Positions 1 to 10,867 of a stretch of 64,000 bases of DNA are shown in pieces (position 1 is the stretch's first letter; the number at the start of each line of letters is the position of its first letter). Location: IMG/VR virus record IMGVR_UViG_3300024229_000001; one strand, 5' to 3'. The translations under genes were made by a program, and so were the position numbers. The stretch comes from an uncultured virus (IMG/VR IMGVR_UViG_3300024229_000001) (Duplodnaviria > Heunggongvirae > Uroviricota > Caudoviricetes). The notes below the pieces were generated by a model. It had not been told where the DNA came from. It worked only from the letters and a program-made list of their open reading frames with translations, and did not search any database.

Positions 1-25
1 CGAGGTAGCATAAAAAAAATGTGAT

Positions 26-71
26 AAAGTGCATTTTAGGGGTTTACAATCAGATCTTAATATGTTATACT
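26..71 (+). promoter_or_regulatory. Early sigma70-type promoter with upstream palindrome
   Basis: TTTACA (43-48), 17 bp, TGn-TATACT (66-71); AAAGTGCATTTT at 26-37; RBS AAGGAG before ATG 97. Confidence 0.8.
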
Positions 72-96
72 AGATATATCAAAAGGAGATAAACAC

Positions 97-303
97 ATGC
101 TACTACCATACGGTGAAATGATCAAGAACGACGTAATCGAAGCTTTCAACGCTGCTGTGACTAACCCTGAGAACATCAACTCTTCAGGTGGTATCAATTG
201 GAACTTTGTAGATGCTGACTTGCAAATCGATCTAGGTGTGATCTATAGCTCAGATTACCTGAACGATTGCTTTGAAGTTCTTGTTGATAACCACTTCGCT
301 TAA
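97..303 (+). CDS. Hypothetical early protein (68 aa)
   Basis: ORF with AGGAG RBS directly behind an early promoter. Confidence 0.75.
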   Translation: MLLPYGEMIKNDVIEAFNAAVTNPENINSSGGINWNFVDADLQIDLGVIYSSDYLNDCFEVLVDNHFA

Positions 304-314
304 GGATAAACACT

Positions 315-398
315 ATGAAAAACTTTATATTTGATCTTACATCCGGTGCCATGAACTTCACGTTACTAACAGGATTGGTATTCTATATAGTCTCATAG
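315..398 (+). CDS. Small hydrophobic peptide (27 aa, MKNFIFDLTSGAMNFTLLTGLVFYIVS)
   Basis: Read manually; AAGGA RBS; below ORF-track cutoff. Confidence 0.4.
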   Translation: MKNFIFDLTSGAMNFTLLTGLVFYIVS

Positions 399-405
399 AC
401 TATTT

Positions 406-667
406 ACTACTATATAGTACGAGCAAAGAAACGTGACAGGTAGGTATAGAACCCGTAAAATCCTGGTGAGGGCCTGAGTGGTGACTACTATATAGTATTA
501 AGGAGTTTATAAAGAATACGTAAGTCCTGGAGCCAGACCATTATACGATATAAATCGGAGTGCTCCAGGCAGTACCACTAGTGACAGCCCCCTGTTTATA
601 CTGGAGAAAAAAAGGCCATAGTGGTACGTGGGGGTCTAGCGTCCAGCGGTAATTCAGAGGAAATACC
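406..667. ncRNA. Putative structured non-coding element (ncRNA or origin-like)
   Basis: GC-richer intergenic stretch; stems 526-533/562-569 and 572-580/619-627; palindrome TACTATATAGTA at 408-419 and 486-497. Confidence 0.45.
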
Positions 668-689
668 TTTTTATATAGAGGAGGAAGAC

Positions 690-878
690 ATGTATCAGAT
701 CACTGGTTATACTATAGATAGATCTATACGGCGTGAGTTTGAGTGTCTCTTTGATGCTATAGAGTTTAAGGATCAATTGGATGCTTTATACTATCATGTT
801 GTATGGAAAGAGTATAGTAGAAGGCCATATGATATGGCCATACAGCCCGTATCAGAGAATCTCAGATTTGTTTTATAG
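690..878 (+). CDS. Hypothetical protein
   Basis: ORF 621..878; GAGGAGG RBS supports ATG 690 as the start. Confidence 0.6.
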   Translation: MYQITGYTIDRSIRREFECLFDAIEFKDQLDALYYHVVWKEYSRRPYDMAIQPVSENLRFVL

Positions 879-938
879 TATATGGCTATAAAAAATTTTC
901 TCGAGAAAAAATGTGTGAAAAACCTTTGCGAGGATAGT

Positions 939-1148
939 ATGGTACGTGTTGTACACTATGTTGGTATGGATGAATATACCTATAGAAGAGCTAGACGAGT
1001 TTGGGGTGGACCAGCTTATTATCACAAATGGAACGACGCAAGAGTTGATAGTGAAGTTTCTGAGAATGATATTGTAGTCTATGGAGATACTACTTATAGA
1101 CAATGGGTATGGGATGCCTCAGCAGTCGACAGGAGTTATACAGAGTAG
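939..1148 (+). CDS. Hypothetical protein
   Basis: ORF 882..1148; GAGGA RBS supports ATG 939. Confidence 0.6.
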   Translation: MVRVVHYVGMDEYTYRRARRVWGGPAYYHKWNDARVDSEVSENDIVVYGDTTYRQWVWDASAVDRSYTE

Positions 1149-1205
1149 CGCAGTGTAGCTTCTTGGTCTAACTTTAAATTTTAATTTCGTGCGAAAGTCG
1201 AGGAA

Positions 1206-1376
1206 ATGGAAGAATTTATCAAAGGAATGAGTGTAACAACTCTTGAGAATGTGGAACTAGTAGAAGTGGTAGATGTACCATATAATATAGATCCACAAGA
1301 GATCAATCGAAAAGCTCGAGAGTTTATGGAAAACAATCCTGAAATTATATCAACCGCAATTGAAAAGGTAAAATAG
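1206..1376 (+). CDS. Hypothetical protein (56 aa)
   Basis: Read manually (MEEFIKGMSV...IEKVK); packed against the next ORF. Confidence 0.5.
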   Translation: MEEFIKGMSVTTLENVELVEVVDVPYNIDPQEINRKAREFMENNPEIISTAIEKVK

Positions 1377-1377
1377 A

Positions 1378-1536
1378 ATGTGGATGTTATTTGTACTGAA
1401 TTTGAGTTATGAAGGAGAGCATAAAGTTACTTTCTATGATAACTATCAAACAGAATTGCAGTGTAGAATAGAAGCACTCTTACTTACCGAAGAGTTTGAT
1501 CAAGCTGAAGAAGCATTTTGTATTCAAAAGGATTAA
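1378..1536 (+). CDS. Hypothetical protein (52 aa, MWMLFVL...C...C)
   Basis: Read manually; typical small phage protein with hydrophobic N-terminus and two Cys. Confidence 0.5.
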   Translation: MWMLFVLNLSYEGEHKVTFYDNYQTELQCRIEALLLTEEFDQAEEAFCIQKD

Positions 1537-1781
1537 TCGTAACCAAGTACTGCTACTTTCTCAATTTCGTTGAATAGCATTTCTTCTTCTCTTTGTTTCC
1601 ATGCAGAATCGAATCCGGATTCATACTGATTTAAGCATCCGGATTCGTTATTCCATAGACGTTTGAAATAACTTTCATAGTAACCTTCAACTATATGGTC
1701 TGGTTCGGAGATGGGAATGAGATGGCCTTTCACTAACCAAAAAAATCTGTTAGCTTCTTTACGTACGTATGGTGAACACAT
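1533..1781 (-). CDS. Hypothetical protein
   Basis: ORF with AGAGGAG RBS before ATG 1781; near-consensus late promoter TATACATA at 1812-1819 (-). Confidence 0.65.
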   Translation of the reverse strand: MCSPYVRKEANRFFWLVKGHLIPISEPDHIVEGYYESYFKRLWNNESGCLNQYESGFDSAWKQREEEMLFNEIEKVAVLGYD

Positions 1782-1855
1782 CAAAAATACTCCTCTATAG
1801 CCATATAGTATTATGTATAGAATGTTAGCGATAACAAATGAAGGATGAAAAAAAA

Positions 1856-2374
1856 ATGTCTATAAAAATTTATGATAATGTCTTACCAGAGAATATGTTT
1901 AGAAATATTCGAGCGCATTTTACTGGTCCACTTTTCCCTTGGTATTTTAATGAAGCTGTCGTGTACTCTGATCAAAAAGAATTCGAGTCTAATCTAAATT
2001 TTCAATTTGTACATACGCTGTACAGAGATAATACAGTTCAATCACCATCATATGATATACTTCAGCCACTTTTTACTTTTATTAATCCTTTTCAGATTAT
2101 TAAACTAAAAGTAAATTGTAATCCTTATAACGATCATATATACGAAAGCGGAATGCATGTAGATATAAATCCTCCAAAATCTACAGCTGTAAATACCGCG
2201 ATATTTTATTTAAATACTAATAATGGTTATACAAAAATAGAAAAGACTGGTCAAAAAATTGAATCTATAGAAAACCGGTTAGTTGTGTTTGACTCAAAAA
2301 CAATGCATTCTGGGTCGACTACAAATGACTCTAAAGCAAGATTTGTGATTAATCTTAATTATATACCGAGATAG
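1856..2374 (+). CDS. 2OG-Fe(II) oxygenase superfamily protein
   Basis: HxD (HVD), distal H (MHSG) and R (RFVINLNY); TAIFYLNTNNGYT and NRLVVFD motifs typical of T4-like phage oxygenases. Confidence 0.8.
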   Translation: MSIKIYDNVLPENMFRNIRAHFTGPLFPWYFNEAVVYSDQKEFESNLNFQFVHTLYRDNTVQSPSYDILQPLFTFINPFQIIKLKVNCNPYNDHIYESGMHVDINPPKSTAVNTAIFYLNTNNGYTKIEKTGQKIESIENRLVVFDSKTMHSGSTTNDSKARFVINLNYIPR

Positions 2375-2392
2375 CTTTTATAATATATACTA

Positions 2393-2703
2393 TGTTAACG
2401 TTGAAGCAACGTGGACACATACTGGACTCGGGGGCGGTACCCGACGACTCCACCATAGATACACTGTCTAAAAAGGAACATTGTTCTGGGCCTGGCCAAC
2501 GAAATCTCCTATTTGAGGTTGGCAGTGTATCTTTGATGGGGTCGAAATAGGATCGACAGGTGTGAAAATGGAAGTGGAGTTAACCGGATGATCGCGTATA
2601 GATCAAAAACCATAACTGCAAACAATAACTTTGCACCTTCAGAAATCGCTCTAGCAGCATAATCTGACGGGTTGGCAACTTACCTTGGAACAGAAAAGTT
2701 GCA
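2393..2703 (+). ncRNA. ssrA: Circularly permuted (two-piece) tmRNA, alphaproteobacterial type
   Basis: T-arm TCGGG-GGCGGTA-CCCGA and CGACTCC-A-CCA (ends 2455) lie upstream of GGGGTCGAAATAGGATCGAC (starts 2538); 7-bp acceptor stem with G3:U70; tag frame 2618-2662 = ANNNFAPSEIALAA*; outer boundaries approximate. Confidence 0.93.
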
Positions 2704-2715
2704 ATTATTTTCAAA

Positions 2716-2761
2716 AAAATGCATTTTACCTATGTACATCCTCTGAGACTTATGGTATAGT
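2716..2761 (+). promoter_or_regulatory. Early promoter with palindrome
   Basis: AAAATGCATTTT (2716-2727), TGTACA (2733-2738), 17 bp, TGG-TATAGT (2756-2761). Confidence 0.8.
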
Positions 2762-2765
2762 AGTA

Positions 2766-2793
2766 CTATAATCAATGAGGAGAAACGATTATG
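2766..2793 (+). repeat. 28-bp leader repeat, copy 1
   Basis: CTATAATCAATGAGGAGAAACGATTATG, identical to 5041-5068. Confidence 0.95.
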
Positions 2794-3171
2794 ACTTACA
2801 CATTCGACGAGAACATTGTATCTGATCTTCACAAAGAAGCTTATGGCTTTCGTCCTCGTGAAGGATGGTGGAATATGTGGGCAGCTTTTAACGCTGATCA
2901 GAAGCAAGCTACATGGGATAGCTTAATTGCTGACTTGGACGATGCTATTGAGCAGCAAGAACAGCAAGAAGCTCAAGCTCTTGTTAACTTTCGTAAATTG
3001 CTTAAGACCACTATGGCTACATGTAACGTAGATTGGAAAAATGCTCTTCGCATCTTAATGGAAGCTGACACTGAGTTTACTAAAGATAGTCAAGAGTTTG
3101 ATTATTTTCTGTGGACCTACGACTTAGGCTACGAAAAGCGCAAAGAGATCTATGCCAAATTCGTGGGGTAG
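2791..3171 (+). CDS. Hypothetical early protein
   Basis: Strong RBS, behind an early promoter; SDLHKEAYGFRPR motif seen in phage early proteins. Confidence 0.8.
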   Translation: MTYTFDENIVSDLHKEAYGFRPREGWWNMWAAFNADQKQATWDSLIADLDDAIEQQEQQEAQALVNFRKLLKTTMATCNVDWKNALRILMEADTEFTKDSQEFDYFLWTYDLGYEKRKEIYAKFVG

Positions 3172-3451
3172 TCCTATAGAGATAGAGCGTAGGCGCAGAA
3201 TAAAAGTAAGTATTGCTGCCTACGCTTATGAGTTTCTCGCAGATTCAATCATGGAAGATCATGAGTTCGATCAATTATGTTTAGAAATCGATACTCAAAT
3301 AAATACAGGTAATAGAAAACTAGATACATTTTTCAAAAAAGAGTTTAATTCTGCAACAGGCTATTGGGTACATCAACATCCCGAAAAAGAAAAGCTGAAA
3401 GATCTGTATGAAAGGTACTACAAAAATGATTCAACTTCATGGATTGAATAA
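3152..3451 (+). CDS. Stand-alone NAD-dependent DNA ligase domain Ia-like protein
   Basis: AAYAYE...IMEDHEFDQL resembles the LigA Ia motif YY...isD.eYD.L. Confidence 0.6.
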   Translation: MPNSWGSPIEIERRRRIKVSIAAYAYEFLADSIMEDHEFDQLCLEIDTQINTGNRKLDTFFKKEFNSATGYWVHQHPEKEKLKDLYERYYKNDSTSWIE

Positions 3452-3668
3452 AGATCAAAGAGAAATTGCTAATATGCTCTGTGATTGCAATTCACTAGAA
3501 GAAGTTCAATTTTTGATGAAGTACCTGTTAACTGATAACGACCGTAGAACTGCATGCACGATTTTAGAGATTATTGAACAAGAGATGGCTGAAGAAGATA
3601 TTGCTACTGAAAATCTAGTAAGAATCCAGCGTCATGTCACAGAGCTATTCATGAGGTGTAGACCATGA
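3426..3668 (+). CDS. Hypothetical protein
   Basis: ORF in tightly packed operon; start uncertain (3408 or 3426). Confidence 0.6.
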   Translation: MIQLHGLNKDQREIANMLCDCNSLEEVQFLMKYLLTDNDRRTACTILEIIEQEMAEEDIATENLVRIQRHVTELFMRCRP

Positions 3669-3937
3669 TTACTGTAGAGATAGATCCAGAAGAAACATGT
3701 ATTACTATTTTGGATAATACCGCTGAGCTCGAAGATGTATCAGCAATTCTATATGATAACTATTGTCATATTCGCCAGTGGAATGAGAAGAATAAAAAGT
3801 TTGATGTAGTTACTCTGACTCCAGAAATGTATATCAAACTCATGAAATCTTTTACTCTTCCACATGGAGCATATGATATTGTATTAAGTGAGAGAGATGT
3901 AGTTAACGACGATATATACGGTATAGAACAGGATTAG
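3665..3937 (+). CDS. Hypothetical protein
   Basis: ATGA overlap with the upstream ORF. Confidence 0.65.
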   Translation: MITVEIDPEETCITILDNTAELEDVSAILYDNYCHIRQWNEKNKKFDVVTLTPEMYIKLMKSFTLPHGAYDIVLSERDVVNDDIYGIEQD

Positions 3938-3941
3938 ACTT

Positions 3942-4070
3942 ATGGTTAATAAAGAAATTCGCGAATTTGATGAAGAAGAACGTCAAAGGGCGAAAGAAAA
4001 AGAAAAAGATAATAAATCTGAAGAACCACCTGAATGGCCAGATAATCCTGTTGATGGACATGCCATATAA
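3942..4070 (+). CDS. Small charged hypothetical protein (42 aa)
   Basis: Read manually; its stop codon overlaps the late promoter. Confidence 0.4.
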   Translation: MVNKEIREFDEEERQRAKEKEKDNKSEEPPEWPDNPVDGHAI

Positions 4071-4073
4071 ATA
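4066..4073 (+). promoter_or_regulatory. T4-type late promoter (tRNA/ncRNA)
   Basis: TATAAATA ending 10 nt before tRNA-Asn. Confidence 0.75.
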
Positions 4074-4082
4074 AAGTTATAT

Positions 4083-4157
4083 TCCGGCGTAGCTCAGTGG
4101 TAGAGCAGTTGACTGTTAATCAATTTGTCGTAGGTTCGACCCCTACCGCCGGAGCCA
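4083..4157 (+). tRNA. trnN: tRNA-Asn (GTT)
   Basis: Cloverleaf: TCCGGCG/CGCCGGA acceptor, GTT anticodon, GGTTCGAC T-loop, encoded CCA. Confidence 0.97.
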
Positions 4158-4192
4158 AAGTTTTAAAGTTTCAACCCGACGGGGTTTGGAAA

Positions 4193-4368
4193 GATAGTGC
4201 AAGGAAATGCAGTTTGTAAGGACTGTAACTTGGCTAGTAGCTGTAGTGGCAGCGTATGAGCATGGAGACATGAAGATACGTATTTCGAACGTAACTGTTT
4301 GATACTAGGCGCAACCGAACGTAGAGTACTTACTAGGTTGTTGGAGGTAAACTGTAATCCTCCCTATC
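4193..4368 (+). ncRNA. Putative multi-stem ncRNA with tRNA-like topology
   Basis: Five-way junction of nested helices closed by GATAG/CTATC; no credible ORF. Confidence 0.55.
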
Positions 4369-4384
4369 ACATTAGACCACGTAT

Positions 4385-4873
4385 CTATTCTATTATGTAT
4401 CTTCTGATACCTAATGCTTTACTGGCAGGAAAATATTCTGCGGTTACTGAGTCATCTTGGTTTCCACCTATAATTAAGTAGTGCTCTTCACCGTCTATAA
4501 TATAAGACATTAAGTAAAAGCCTACATGACCCTGCCAACTAGAATTCCCTCTTGGGAATACCACAATATCCCCTAATCCTGGTTCATTCACTGTTTCTCC
4601 CCATTGTAAGAATGATCTAGCGGTTAGGGGATATTGGCTCACTGAGTCAGATCCTGGTATATCGTTTGCATGAAGTACTGCATTCACAAAAGCAGCGCAC
4701 CATTCAATCCTTGCTGGATCTACACCAAGGAATTCTCTAAGCTCAGGATTATCACGTACTTCATGTTTACCCATTAGTTGAGCTGCGTCATAAACATGGC
4801 TTTCCTCAGGGACCGCGTAAGTGGCGCATCCAGAAACAAATAGGACTAAGGCGGGAATATGTATATATCTCAT
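4385..4873 (-). CDS. TIGR02594-like NlpC/P60 (CHAP-like) cell-wall hydrolase, predicted lipoprotein
   Basis: WCAAFVN, ARSFLQWG, GDIVVF, GHVGF and GGNQ motifs; lipobox LVLFVSG-C after ATG 4873; late promoter TATAAATA at 4882-4889 (-). Confidence 0.85.
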   Translation of the reverse strand: MRYIHIPALVLFVSGCATYAVPEESHVYDAAQLMGKHEVRDNPELREFLGVDPARIEWCAAFVNAVLHANDIPGSDSVSQYPLTARSFLQWGETVNEPGLGDIVVFPRGNSSWQGHVGFYLMSYIIDGEEHYLIIGGNQDDSVTAEYFPASKALGIRRYIIE

Positions 4874-4920
4874 GTCAGCACTATTTATAAAAAAATACAA
4901 TTTGATACAAATTAATTTTT

Positions 4921-4975
4921 CCTTTAGAATCAATAGGTTACGTTTCTCCTCATCCTAAGCCATTGATTCTAAAGG
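4921..4975. repeat. 20-bp inverted repeat with 15-nt loop
   Basis: CCTTTAGAATCAATAGGTTA ... TAAGCCATTGATTCTAAAGG (18/20 complementary). Confidence 0.9.
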
Positions 4976-4991
4976 GTTTTTTATTTTAAAA

Positions 4992-5036
4992 TAAATGCAT
5001 TTTTTTGTGTACATCCTCAGAGAACGGTGGTATAAT
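4992..5036 (+). promoter_or_regulatory. Early promoter with palindrome
   Basis: AAATGCATTT (4993-5002), TGTACA (5008-5013), 17 bp, TGG-TATAAT (5031-5036). Confidence 0.85.
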
Positions 5037-5040
5037 ATAC

Positions 5041-5068
5041 CTATAATCAATGAGGAGAAACGATTATG
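5041..5068 (+). repeat. 28-bp leader repeat, copy 2
   Basis: Identical to 2766-2793. Confidence 0.95.
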
Positions 5069-5347
5069 TTGACTAAATCTGAACTGAACCGCATGGCAAC
5101 TCTGATGGCTAAAATGGAAGGTAATGACTTTTCAACTGTAGCTTCTATGTTTAAGCAAGCTCAAGGCCTTCGCCAAAAGATTGCTGCTGGAGTATTCAAG
5201 GTTGGTGACACTGTCAAGTTTGAGGCCAAAGGTCGGACACGCGAAGCAGTGGTTACTAAAGTAAATCGTAAGACAATTGCTGTTAAAGAGAACAAAGGTC
5301 TAGGCTTTGCTTGGAAAGTTTCTCCAAGTCTTTTGAAAAAAGTTTGA
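5066..5347 (+). CDS. Small basic early protein, SH3/KOW-like barrel
   Basis: FKVGDTVKF...VVTKVNRKTIAV...WKVSPSLL pattern; strong RBS. Confidence 0.75.
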   Translation: MLTKSELNRMATLMAKMEGNDFSTVASMFKQAQGLRQKIAAGVFKVGDTVKFEAKGRTREAVVTKVNRKTIAVKENKGLGFAWKVSPSLLKKV

Positions 5348-5349
5348 AA

Positions 5350-5395
5350 AAAATGCACTTTAGGGGTTTACATTCCTAGAGACTTATGGTAGAAT
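5350..5395 (+). promoter_or_regulatory. Early promoter with palindrome
   Basis: AAAATGCACTTT (5350-5361), TTTACA (5367-5372), 17 bp, TGG-TAGAAT (5390-5395). Confidence 0.8.
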
Positions 5396-5426
5396 ACCTT
5401 ATAAATTGATGATGGAGAAATACAAT

Positions 5427-5726
5427 ATGACTATGACAGCTCAACAAAAAGCAGATCGTTTGGCACTTATCAAAAAGGTAGCACAAAAGCGCGATAGTGC
5501 AGCTGCTTTCAAAAAGAAACTTGCGGCTCAAGGATCCAAAGTTCGCCGTTGGAGTGATGTTGAAGAAAAGCCTAAGCGCAAAGCTGTACAAGATGCCTTT
5601 GATAAAGAAATCGCTGGCTATGATAGTGACAACATCAACGCTTGGACTGATGCTTCTAAATACGCCAAAGAATATTATGGCGAAACTCTTCACTACACAA
5701 CTAAATTTGATAACGATTGGGATTAA
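5427..5726 (+). CDS. Hypothetical early protein
   Basis: GGAG RBS supports ATG 5427. Confidence 0.75.
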   Translation: MTMTAQQKADRLALIKKVAQKRDSAAAFKKKLAAQGSKVRRWSDVEEKPKRKAVQDAFDKEIAGYDSDNINAWTDASKYAKEYYGETLHYTTKFDNDWD

Positions 5727-5728
5727 TC

Positions 5729-5896
5729 ATGAAAAACTTTGATATAATTTTTGGTGTCTTAATGGGTTTTCTCCTTGCTATCTTTCTTATGGTAATCGCC
5801 AGTGGTGCAGTTACTACTAACTTTGAAAAATGTAGCGATCGATATAGTACATCTGACGAAGTAGTTGAATGTATGTGGTTGTTGGAGAATAACTAA
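5729..5896 (+). CDS. Small membrane protein (55 aa)
   Basis: Read manually; N-terminal TM helix, two Cys; fills the gap between neighbouring ORFs. Confidence 0.6.
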   Translation: MKNFDIIFGVLMGFLLAIFLMVIASGAVTTNFEKCSDRYSTSDEVVECMWLLENN

Positions 5897-5897
5897 T

Positions 5898-6326
5898 ATG
5901 ACTATGCATCTAGTAAGAGGTATGTCTACACTCTCTACTAAGAAGCGTAGGCAGAAAAAGAAAAATATTGATAACGCTCAAATGGAGCGTGATTGGAAAT
6001 CTTACAATAAAGATATGCGACGTAACAATTTACACTCTTGTCAGTTTAATACTTTACAAGAGTATGTTGATTATCGCATGGGCAAGGCAAAACCAAAACC
6101 AAAGGAGTTTGTACCTTATGAACCGAAAGAATCCAAACCAACTCGCTCGCCAACGAATTATCCAAGCCTCTCGACGGAAAGCATACCTGGATCAGGAGCG
6201 AAAAAAGAGTCTCCAGTCTACTCAGGAGACTACATTATCGGAATCGCGACAATGCACAAGTCAAACATCGTCCCTGTCGGAAGGGGAGATGATCCGAAAC
6301 ATTATGCGGCCATGAGGAGAAATTAA
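5898..6326 (+). CDS. Conserved T4-like hypothetical protein (GIATMHKSN motif)
   Basis: GGAG RBS; basic protein with C-terminal YSG..IIGIATMHKSNIVPV. Confidence 0.75.
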   Translation: MTMHLVRGMSTLSTKKRRQKKKNIDNAQMERDWKSYNKDMRRNNLHSCQFNTLQEYVDYRMGKAKPKPKEFVPYEPKESKPTRSPTNYPSLSTESIPGSGAKKESPVYSGDYIIGIATMHKSNIVPVGRGDDPKHYAAMRRN

Positions 6327-7112: not shown

Positions 7113-7147
7113 TAATGTCAATTCCAAACGTACGGAGAATTTATAGT

Positions 7148-7417
7148 ATGGAACTAACTCAAGAAAATATGCTCGCAGCTTTGCGAGAAAGTGAATGTGA
7201 AGTAACCTTTACAAAAGTAAATGGTGACACTCGCGTAATGAAATGCACTTTGAATATGGATATTATTCCAAGCAATAAGATTCCAAAAGGCGATGACACC
7301 CCTGAACTTCGCGAAGGGTTAGATTCGATCTTGAAAGCTATTCGTGTATTTGATACTGGTCTAGAAGATTGGCGATCATTCAAAGTTGAGACTGTGAAAA
7401 ACTTTGTAAAAAGTTGA
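7148..7417 (+). CDS. WYL_2/Sm-like SH3 beta-barrel protein
   Basis: VTFTKVNGDTRVMKCTL...VFD...WRSFK motif; GGAG RBS before ATG 7148. Confidence 0.7.
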   Translation: MELTQENMLAALRESECEVTFTKVNGDTRVMKCTLNMDIIPSNKIPKGDDTPELREGLDSILKAIRVFDTGLEDWRSFKVETVKNFVKS

Positions 7418-8613: not shown

Positions 8614-9056
8614 GCGCTCAAAGTATTAGTACAAATATTACTAATAGTGAATTTCAATGCTTAATTCAAAACGGATATTTTGAAGCTCGTTCAGACGGAT
8701 ATGCTTCAGTGATGGGTGTTACTAATGTGGTACTCAATCGAACTGAAGATCCTCGATATCCCGACAGTATCTGTGGAGTAGTCTATCAAGGTCGGCAAGA
8801 CTCAAACGGTAATATGATTCGTAATCAGTGTCAATTTAGCTGGTATTGCGATGGTAAATCCGATCGAATGATTAATACAGAATTAGAAAATAAAGTTAAG
8901 ATAGTGGTTCGTGAAACACTTGCTTTATGGTATAACAATATTGATATTACAGAAGGGGCAACACATTATCATGCTAACTATGTTCGACCAACTTGGGCCA
9001 AAACCCTCAACTACACTACACAAATCGGAACTCACAAATACTATCGTTGGAACTAA
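8529..9056 (+). CDS. SleB-like cell wall hydrolase (Hydrolase_2)
   Basis: YFEARS, VVLNR, YPDSICGVVYQ, CQFSW, GATHYHA, IGTHKYY motifs; signal-peptide-like N-terminus. Confidence 0.9.
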   Translation: MANFDYKNKLTKWATQFGLCLIASAGSVSAQSISTNITNSEFQCLIQNGYFEARSDGYASVMGVTNVVLNRTEDPRYPDSICGVVYQGRQDSNGNMIRNQCQFSWYCDGKSDRMINTELENKVKIVVRETLALWYNNIDITEGATHYHANYVRPTWAKTLNYTTQIGTHKYYRWN

Positions 9057-9063
9057 TTCAGCA

Positions 9064-9297
9064 ATGTTAGAAGGTAAGATACTCACAAAGAAAAGATTTT
9101 CTACTGTGGTAGAAAAGAAAGTAAAGCAGTTTCAGCTTTCTTATTTAGACGCAATCCTTGAAGTTTGTGAGGAACTTGAGTTTCCAGTAGAAGACGTAGG
9201 AAGAGTGATTACTCCTAGTCTTAAAGAAAAAGTTACTGCTGAAGCCCAACGTCTTCGAATGATTAAAGACTCTAACACAGCAACTTTGCCAATATGA
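9064..9297 (+). CDS. gp33: Late promoter transcription co-activator gp33
   Basis: SYLDAILEVCEE...LKEKVTAEA motif; synteny 33-59-32. Confidence 0.85.
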   Translation: MLEGKILTKKRFSTVVEKKVKQFQLSYLDAILEVCEELEFPVEDVGRVITPSLKEKVTAEAQRLRMIKDSNTATLPI

Positions 9298-9884
9298 TTA
9301 TGGAACCATACGACGCTTTTCGCTTTTACCAATCTATGAAGTTACATTTTGAGTCTGATAGTTATGACGCTATCAAATACAATTATAAGACTTCTGTAAA
9401 GCCACAATCTTTTTGGAAACGAAAAGACAAATATTTCTTTGCAAAGGTTGGTAGAAAATTTGATAGTGCTAAAGAACTAATCAACTATTATGCAGCGCAC
9501 TTCATTCAAGATAAGACTTGGATTGGCGATATGATTGAAGATGAAGACATCTATAAGTCTTATCAAAAGCGTATGCAGTCATTAGGTTATACCTTTGAAA
9601 ATGATATGACTACACTTGCTGATCTAGGTAATTTAGATCAAGTGTTGAATTCATCAGATGGTCATCCTCATATCATCACGGCTTACCTTGGTGGTGATAT
9701 AAATATAGAGTCAGTAGTAATTCTAAATCAACTTACAGGATTTATGAATCGTGCTAATAAAGAAATAAGCGAAACTATTGTGTGGCCAGATGTCTCACGA
9801 AAGGTTCGTAAATATTCACCTTTTGTTCAATATGATTTGCAAAAAGCTAAAAATATTGTGCTTAAGGTGTTTACATCAGAGTAA
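9294..9884 (+). CDS. gp59: Helicase loader gp59
   Basis: KLHF...YDAIKYN...KRKDKYFFAK motif; synteny. Confidence 0.85.
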   Translation: MIMEPYDAFRFYQSMKLHFESDSYDAIKYNYKTSVKPQSFWKRKDKYFFAKVGRKFDSAKELINYYAAHFIQDKTWIGDMIEDEDIYKSYQKRMQSLGYTFENDMTTLADLGNLDQVLNSSDGHPHIITAYLGGDINIESVVILNQLTGFMNRANKEISETIVWPDVSRKVRKYSPFVQYDLQKAKNIVLKVFTSE

Positions 9885-9898
9885 TTTTGATGTATAAT
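9870..9898 (+). promoter_or_regulatory. Early promoter of gp32
   Basis: TTTACA (9870-9875), 17 bp, TATAAT (9893-9898). Confidence 0.8.
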
Positions 9899-9955
9899 AC
9901 TTATATTATGTGAATGTGGATAATTCAGTAAATACAAAAACATACGGAGAAATAT

Positions 9956-10867
9956 ATGTCTTTTTCAAATCTAAAACGTAACCGCAGTTCTATCGATTCA
10001 CTTACCAAAGCGGCAGAAGCCGCCGGTGGTGGTGGACAACAAAAGCAATCTTATGCAGATGAGCGTTTGTGGAAACCAACAGTCGATAAAGCAGGTAATG
10101 GTTACGCAGTAATTCGTTTCCTACCAGCACCCGAAGGCGAGGATCTCCCTTGGGTTCGTTATTGGGATCACGGTTTCCAAGGTCCATCAGGTCTTTGGTA
10201 TATCGAAAATTCTCTTACATCAATTGGTCAAAATGATCCAGTATCTGAAATGAATTCAGTGCTGTGGAATTCTGGTCGTGAAGAGGATAAACAAACTGCT
10301 CGTGATCGTAAGCGCCGCTTGCATTATGTAGCAAATATTCAAGTCGTATCTGATCCAGGTAACCCAGACAATGAAGGTAAGGTATTCCTTTATAAGTTTG
10401 GTAAAAAGATCTTTGATAAGATTATGGATGTTATGCAGCCGCAGTTTGCCGATGAAGATCCGGTGAATCCATTTGATTTCTGGGATGGAGCGAATTTCAA
10501 ACTTAAGATTCAGCAGGTTGCGGGTTATCGTAACTATGACAAATCTGAGTTTGCAAATGCCTCTGCTTTGTCTGATGACGATGAAAAGCTAGAAGGTATT
10601 TACAATCGTTTGTATAGCTTGCAGGATTTCCTCGATCCTAAAAACTATAAAACATACGATGAACTTAAAACTAAGTTGAACCGTGTCCTTGGCCAAGAGG
10701 ATATGGTAATGACTACAGCGGAGTCTGTATCTCTTGATGAGCCAGCTCCATCTCGTTATGAACCAGTAGAAGCATCACCTGGAGTAACAAGTAACTCAGT
10801 ACCAGAAACATCTAATGATGAAGATGATACAATGAGTTATTTCCAAAAATTGGCTGCAGGCCAATAA
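9956..10867 (+). CDS. gp32: Single-stranded DNA-binding protein gp32
   Basis: DERLWKP.VDKAGNGYAVIRFLP, GKVFLYKFGKKIFDKI, acidic C-tail. Confidence 0.97.
   Translation: MSFSNLKRNRSSIDSLTKAAEAAGGGGQQKQSYADERLWKPTVDKAGNGYAVIRFLPAPEGEDLPWVRYWDHGFQGPSGLWYIENSLTSIGQNDPVSEMNSVLWNSGREEDKQTARDRKRRLHYVANIQVVSDPGNPDNEGKVFLYKFGKKIFDKIMDVMQPQFADEDPVNPFDFWDGANFKLKIQQVAGYRNYDKSEFANASALSDDDEKLEGIYNRLYSLQDFLDPKNYKTYDELKTKLNRVLGQEDMVMTTAESVSLDEPAPSRYEPVEASPGVTSNSVPETSNDEDDTMSYFQKLAAGQ

Follow-up and report, generated by a model that had tools for sequence, protein, structure and literature searches.

Two-piece tmRNA in Caulobacter and other Alphaproteobacteria was reportedly described in 2000 by Keiler, Shapiro and Williams. 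An alpha-type two-piece ssrA gene is carried by phage Melnitz, which infects OM43, and permuted tmRNAs were reported in 17 of 47 Melnitz and pelagimyophage contigs (Buchholz et al., 2022; PMC9004378). According to the same source, tmRNAs are present in 402 of 18,146 phage genomes; 53 of the 402 were two-piece by ARAGORN, and 50 of these 53 came from marine or aquatic samples (PMC9004378). One-piece tmRNAs have been described in mycobacteriophages and in Bacillus phage G (Hudson et al., 2014; PMC4131195), and a 2025 tmRNA database paper gives 79 bacteriophage sequences (PMC11915505). The phage-borne two-piece tmRNA is already published as a kind, and the gene analysed here adds a member to it.

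The DNA under study (the window) is a stretch of 64,000 nucleotides from an uncultured virus (IMG/VR record IMGVR_UViG_3300024229_000001), with a G+C content of 34-39%. An earlier note on the window had proposed that it carries a circularly permuted tmRNA gene of alphaproteobacterial type and that this gene is phage-borne. The second point is borne out by the T4-type genes that PHROGs names across the window: gp32, gp59, gp33, baseplate hub and wedge, sheath, tube and portal, together with prohead protease, scaffold, major capsid protein, both terminase subunits, UvsY and a UvsW-like helicase. The capsid protein was compared with those of isolates: OM43 phage Melnitz was the closest by this protein (65.9% identity), followed by Stenotrophomonas phage DLP_6 (63.3%), Pelagibacter phage Mosig (63.1%), Pelagibacter phage HTVC008M (62.2%) and cyanomyophages (about 60%). 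The window is assigned by its gene content to an uncultured marine T4-like myophage lineage, which is considered to be without a close isolate, and to be distinct from that of Melnitz, because the best capsid identity among isolates is only 65.9%. A further virus record (G001), which holds 71% of the window's sampled words, gave no alpha_tmRNA match; it is uninformative on the tmRNA because it has no counterpart of window positions 1-6000.

The type of the gene was confirmed with both of the tools that the earlier note had named for the purpose. The permuted tmRNA called by ARAGORN extends over 2362-2753 and carries the tag ANNNFAPSEIALAA, and the Rfam alpha_tmRNA model (RF01849) matched over the full length of the family at 2351-2705 (117.9 bits, gathering score 50, E 1.6e-31). 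A second Rfam model, tmRNA_permuted (RF04321), matched at 2394-2662 (117.8 bits, gathering score 47, E 2.3e-22). These scores are far above chance. The individual elements were read from the sequence: the T-arm consists of a stem (2428-2432/2440-2444) and a 7-nt loop, GGCGGTA (2433-2439), and is followed by the acceptor 3' strand (2445-2451), the discriminator A2452 and an encoded CCA (2453-2455). The order is permuted, with the CCA end at 2455 separated by 82 nt from the start of the acceptor 5' strand (2538-2544), which forms seven pairs with the 3' strand, including G2540:T2449, the equivalent of G3:U70. The tag frame, which encodes ANNNFAPSEIALAA, runs from GCA at 2618 to TAA at 2660-2662. 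The earlier note had placed the T-arm, the CCA end, the 5' start, G3:U70, the tag frame and the closing hairpin correctly in every case. The remaining features are collected in Table 1.

Table 1. Coordinates of the tmRNA features in the window (position 1 is the first letter of the window)
Feature	Position	Strand	Evidence or remark
A/T-rich promoter-like box	2379..2390	+	just 5' of the tmRNA; TATAAT 2379-2384, AATATATA 2382-2389
Acceptor piece (3' part of a standard tmRNA)	2394..2455	+	ARAGORN, Rfam, helix counts on 20 sequences
Acceptor piece, P2 strands	2394-2398 and 2416-2424	+	
Acceptor piece, local hairpin	2399-2403/2407-2411	+	
Intervening segment, 82 nt	2456..2537	+	predicted to be removed at maturation
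Spacer-closing stem	2457-2466 with 2523-2532	+	encloses the 56-nt variable interior 2467-2522
Coding piece	2538..2705	+	3' end approximate (end of the Rfam match at 2705)
Coding piece, P2 strands	2557-2564 and 2580-2584	+	
Coding piece, PK1-region hairpin	2589-2593/2601-2605	+	
Coding piece, 3' pseudoknot-like element	2669-2672 with 2682-2685; 2675-2681 with 2696-2702	+	the second pairing is the closing hairpin

For the analysis of structural constraint, 20 viral tmRNAs were aligned: those of the window, of contigs L122 and L123, of Melnitz, of L177 and of 15 further contigs chosen among those that contain the window's 20-base 5' tRNA-like-domain sequence (L121 was omitted, being identical to the window). 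All 20 genes were picked from ARAGORN calls with a tag, so that the open tag frame in 20 of 20 is a selection condition and not a test. When the 56 pairs of the structure derived from the window were scored across the alignment, 93.5% of cells were paired, against 81.2% in column shuffles (0 of 500 reached 93.5%) and 34-43% in structures slid by 1-3 columns. The window structure is favoured over its slid versions because it was derived from one of the aligned sequences; the changes on both sides that were found in 34 of the 56 pairs are independent of that. The acceptor stem was paired in 100% of cells and its G:U pair (G3:U70) was kept in all 20 sequences; the T-arm was also 100% paired, with double changes in three of its five pairs, and the P2 helices were 95-100% paired, again with double changes. 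In the 10-bp stem that closes the spacer, all ten pairs covary and 97.5% of cells are paired. RNAalifold, run independently, recovered the T-arm, the acceptor stem, the spacer stem and the P2 helices. Although the tags vary in the middle, an AN.N start is shared, and 17 of 20 end in ALAA.

Closer relatives gave the same picture. In a four-way alignment of the window, L121, L122 and L123, the mature parts were nearly identical and the spacer interiors were unrelated in sequence and length (the whole spacer measures 82 nt in the window, against about 113 nt in L122 and about 59 nt in L123). Relative to the window, L122 has three fully compensated T-stem pairs and two compensated acceptor pairs, with G3:U70 unchanged. 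On this comparative evidence, the tmRNA structure is under selection, as the tag frame appears to be. Variation of the spacer, which is predicted to be discarded, would be unconstrained (its length ranges from about 59 nt to about 255 nt) inside a closing stem that covaries strictly; this is a testable point.

PK1 is normally required for tagging. Its second-stem hairpin was paired in 80.6% of cells in the 20-sequence alignment. For the first stem, a region that MAFFT misaligns, reading by eye gave only two G-C pairs in the window (2585:2596 and 2586:2595) and covariation between classes of relatives. On these readings, PK1 appears to be the weak point of this tmRNA lineage.

The position of the gene was then compared among phage contigs. 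A homologue of ORF 2791-3171 lies directly 3' of the tmRNA on three viral contigs (L121, L122 and L123, with 100%, 98% and 86% identity, respectively). The gp33-gp59-gp32 block of the window (8911-10867) follows the tmRNA at a distance of about 6.2 kb, and small ORFs, a tRNA-Asn gene and a manA-like RNA lie between the tmRNA and gp33. The tmRNA is also upstream of gp33-gp59-gp32 in Melnitz, in L123 and in two further phage contigs, L259 and L260. In these two, where gp32 is 73-77% identical to that of the window, the order is as follows: tmRNA, homologues of window ORFs 5406, 5865, 7115 and 7486, a hydrolase, gp33, gp59 and gp32. Rfam tmRNA matches on these relatives scored 89.6-116.9 bits, and five independent contigs at the least (L121, L122, L123, L259 and L260) share the same arrangement. 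The conserved gene locus among relatives is a point that can be tested.

L259 (G004:C9:1-12000) belongs to a 45-kb contig binned in a metagenome-assembled genome (MAG) labelled 'Methanobacteriota archaeon', and L260 (G003:C85:52000-68000) to a 113-kb contig, of 39% G+C near the gene, in a MAG labelled 'Marinovum sp.'. Judged by their gene content, both are T4-like phage contigs misbinned in MAGs and syntenic with the window from the tmRNA to gp32. The 'Methanobacteriota' tmRNA contig is misbinned phage DNA; nominally archaeal tmRNAs have been attributed to misbinned bacterial DNA in the database paper (PMC11915505). The tmRNA_permuted match on L259 (1426-1867) is 442 nt long, whereas that in the window has 269 nt, and the L259 spacer is put at roughly 255 nt, an estimate from the length of the Rfam match and not a mapped value. 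ARAGORN made no tmRNA call on L259.

Outside this group the gene is often missing: by ARAGORN, no tmRNA was present within about 4 kb at 28 of the 31 viral loci with an ORF-2791 homologue, the 28 loci having only that homologue in common with the window (35-63% identity). In the 14 of these 28 loci that were scanned with Rfam, no tmRNA was found in any. Because 28 of 31 loci are without it, the tmRNA gene appears to be conserved in a clade and accessory, or dispensable, in the wider group, in agreement with the 17 of 47 contigs of Buchholz et al.

Several other features of the region were recorded. ORF 1838-2374 (+), just upstream of the tmRNA, was named 'DNA endonuclease V' by PHROGs (phrog_274, E 3e-48) and matched a 2OG-Fe(II) oxygenase domain in Pfam (PF13640, 29.7 bits, cut-off 27); the PHROG label may be misleading. 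ARAGORN placed tRNA-Asn(GTT) at 4083-4157 (+), and the Rfam manA RNA motif (RF01745) matched at full length at 4169-4373 (+), adjoining the 3' side of this tRNA. The manA match scored 48.4 bits (E 1.1e-10), below the gathering score of 55.2, and the segment is probably a diverged member of manA, a phage-associated structured RNA. Pfam gave RNA-related domain hints for two small ORFs between the tmRNA and gp33, 5066-5347 and 7115-7417 (+): a phage ProQ C-terminal-like domain in one (24 bits, below the cut-off of 27) and a WYL_2 Sm-like domain in the other (43.8 bits, above the cut-off of 26.7).

Relatives of the gene were searched for in viral and cellular sequences. The 20-base 5' tRNA-like-domain sequence of the window is contained in at least 120 viral contigs, several of which have 74-85% identity to the window tmRNA over about 280-370 nt. 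By BLAST, 172 of 401 genomes sampled from the class to which one alphaproteobacterial MAG belongs matched the gene, a tally that includes one 31-nt T-arm match in the unpublished genome G046. Nearly every listed match is confined to the T-arm/acceptor part (30-50 nt); G002, with 70% identity over 131 nt, and three matches of 34-52 nt elsewhere in the gene depart from this. A scan of genome contigs for the tag-start pattern yielded 71 loci. Of these, the loci most similar to the window tmRNA (L157, L172 and L177) are in MAGs labelled Bacteroidota, Methanobacteriota and Marinovum; two of them lie on the T4-like contigs G004:C9 and G003:C85, which are uninformative on the host because they are phage contigs.

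These data bear on the host. The earlier note had taken the gene type as a sign of an alphaproteobacterial host, a step that is not supported as it stands: because Melnitz, with the same alpha-type gene, infects OM43, and because the full-length likeness of the window gene is to phage tmRNAs, the gene type marks the ancestry of the gene and not its present host. An alphaproteobacterial host (SAR11, for example) is plausible, with a chance that we put slightly above even. The gene type would be an unreliable reporter of the host, a further point open to testing.

Transcription signals were searched for around the gene. Most of the 20 relatives have an A/T box of the form TATA(T/A)ATA at the corresponding place in the alignment, and exact TATAAATA occurs there in Melnitz, L177, L111 and L088. 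We take TATAAATA to be the T4 late-promoter consensus. The box of the window, AATATATA, matches it at 6 of 8 positions. With 21 exact copies where 8.8 are expected, a number reached in 0 of 100 shuffles, TATAAATA is over-represented in the window and is found mostly just upstream of structural genes; the box AATATATAC occurs in the window at chance frequency (35 found, 35.7 expected). The TATAAATA-like boxes hint at late-type transcription of the window tmRNA from its A/T box, which would act as a promoter. An early promoter has been proposed for the Melnitz ssrA (Buchholz et al., 2022; PMC9004378). A scan of 1800-4500 gave 9 promoter-like sites (9.6 expected) and 0 terminators, with no sigma-70 promoter or intrinsic terminator adjoining the tmRNA. 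At another site in the window, exact TATAAATA at 4066-4073 (+), 10 nt before the tRNA-Asn gene, suggests late-type transcription of that tRNA.

Part of the stretch is contained in 20 RNA runs, of which four (X1, X4, X8 and X12), all assembled contigs, were examined. The tmRNA region, with its spacer, is found in assemblies of seawater metatranscriptomes, where its depth resembles that of the neighbouring genes; these contigs may derive from DNA. X1 covers the gene and the spacer with a word depth of 6-19, and contigs give neither ends nor levels. Very deep contigs in X1 and X12 (word depth 894 and 1325) match the window only at 2424-2455 and 2538-2557: 19-22 other letters replace the 82-nt spacer and the sequence then diverges. 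The deep contigs belong to the alpha-type tmRNA of another, abundant seawater organism with nearly the same tRNA-like domain.

By sequence and structure the gene belongs among the tmRNAs, and it has been retained at a fixed locus in related phages. The gene is real, and we regard it as very probably a functional ssrA of the alphaproteobacterial two-piece type, residing in the genome of a marine T4-like myophage. As the earlier note had said, the window appears to lack smpB: no SmpB was found among 60 window ORFs (PHROGs) or 19 window ORFs (Pfam), a search that covered 64 kb of the phage, nor was the family found in three related records (the complete 141,548-bp Melnitz genome and two related fragments), whereas SmpB was detected by the same search in 10 of 14 control genomes. 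Because none was found in the scanned ORFs or the related records, dependence on host SmpB is a reasonable expectation.

For this functional ssrA gene, we infer the processing sites, charging, SmpB dependence, timing and benefit as follows. A single precursor would be transcribed from the gene's own A/T-rich promoter-like box and would fold so that the 10-bp spacer-closing stem extends the acceptor stem. Host tRNA-processing enzymes would then cut at G2538 (an RNase P-type 5' end) and trim to the CCA at 2455, with loss of the 82-nt spacer, and the two pieces would be held together by pairing in the acceptor stem and the P2 helices. The two-piece complex would be charged with alanine via G3:U70 and, with host SmpB, would enter stalled ribosomes, where the tag ANNNFAPSEIALAA would be added and the product directed to host proteases. 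What the phage would probably gain is that ribosomes stay free during the degradation of host and phage mRNA in infection. The earlier note had suggested that the RNA may perhaps offset host defences that act on tRNA, tmRNA or mRNA.

A more far-reaching interpretation is that the window gene belongs to a phage-resident alpha-type tmRNA lineage, inherited vertically at one locus upstream of gp33-gp59-gp32 in marine T4-like phages of different host classes, with a late-type TATAAATA-like promoter and its own 14-residue tag style, absent from the cellular genomes sampled. We hold it tentatively, as a possibility of rather low probability. If true, the RNA would be a phage-adapted trans-translation RNA and not a recently borrowed host gene, tuned to late infection or to the evasion of defences that stall ribosomes or cleave mRNA.

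Alternative functions were weighed against that of an ordinary ribosome-rescue RNA. An active RNA could serve to remodel the proteome, either by tagging host proteins for amino-acid recycling or by replacing the host's tag with that of the phage; the idea has been raised in print for Melnitz, the closest isolate (Buchholz et al., 2022; PMC9004378). Among the sequences examined, 14-residue tags of the AN.NFAP...ALAA style were found only on viral or misbinned phage contigs, and cellular loci with the tag-start pattern mostly carry shorter tags such as ANDNFAPVALAA, which is in keeping with such a role. However, the C-terminal ALAA is an ordinary protease signal, and to our knowledge a tmRNA has no means of choosing host over phage proteins, since any stalled ribosome is acted on. 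We consider proteome remodelling improbable.

The RNA could alternatively be a decoy that titrates host SmpB and so shuts down host trans-translation, as proposed for the RNA of mycobacteriophage DS6A, whose sequence is little more than a tRNA-like domain; a DS6A-like molecule inhibits tmRNA, perhaps via SmpB titration (Hudson et al., 2014; PMC4131195). In the window gene, too, conservation is highest in the tRNA-like domain. A decoy is nevertheless very improbable here, because a coding piece, a tag and a 3' element would be needless for it: the coding piece is complete, tags are present in 20 of 20 relatives (picked as such) with a shared start and usually an ALAA end, and the 3' element of the coding piece covaries in the 20-sequence alignment. 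The least probable reading of all is an inert passenger, which could be an assembly chimera, what is left of an attachment site, or a host ssrA copy taken up in an illegitimate recombination event. In favour of it, ssrA is a frequent integration site for phages and islands, which can carry pieces of the gene (PMC9004378; PMC4383910), and the gene is missing from many relatives. Against it, neither piece is incomplete, five or more independent contigs have the same arrangement, the changes between lineages are compensatory, the phage is T4-like with no match to an integrase-named PHROG family among the 60 window ORFs scanned, and no near-identical cellular donor was found among the matches listed for the 401 sampled alphaproteobacterial genomes.

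Read as a functional two-piece ssrA gene, the locus is a well-supported addition, from a lineage without a cultured representative, to the marine myophages that carry their own ribosome-rescue RNA. Among known systems, the RNAs of the mycobacteriophages (Bxz1 group), Bacillus phage G and DS6A are also phage-encoded trans-translation RNAs, and no phage SmpB is reported for them (PMC4131195), but they belong to other host groups and phage families. The mycobacteriophage and phage G tmRNAs have the standard unpermuted form, whereas that of the window is permuted, and the DS6A RNA is without a tag frame, whereas the window gene has a complete coding piece and a tag frame (PMC4131195).

The Melnitz ssrA (MZ577097.1 45984-46436; 106.7 bits on RF01849) is, like the window gene, an alpha-type two-piece tmRNA in a marine T4-like myophage. 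In both phages the gene lies in a variable region upstream of gp33-gp59-gp32 and no smpB was seen, and the tags, ANDNYVPVDYALAA in Melnitz and ANNNFAPSEIALAA in the window, are alike in style and length. The two tmRNAs are 72% identical over 131 nt. They differ in that the Melnitz gene adjoins gp33, whereas that of the window is about 6.2 kb upstream, and in that Melnitz has a glutamine riboswitch aptamer (RF01739, 52.8 bits) directly 3' of the tmRNA and the window does not: RF01739 failed to match window 1500-4500 even at E up to 5, nor did it match L122, L123, L259 or L260 at the gathering score.

With the alphaproteobacterial two-piece tmRNA (RF01849), the window gene shares the permuted order, the T-loop, the acceptor stem with G3:U70, the 5' tRNA-like-domain sequence, the tag style and the conserved 3' loop. 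In contrast to it, the window gene is carried by a virus, and its spacer (82 nt) is longer than that of the RF01849 model. The region of the Rfam long-range helix corresponds in the window lineage to the local hairpin of the acceptor piece (2399-2411), where the Rfam alignment marks four non-standard pairs. When the whole length is compared, the window gene is closer to other viral copies than to the cellular ones sampled.
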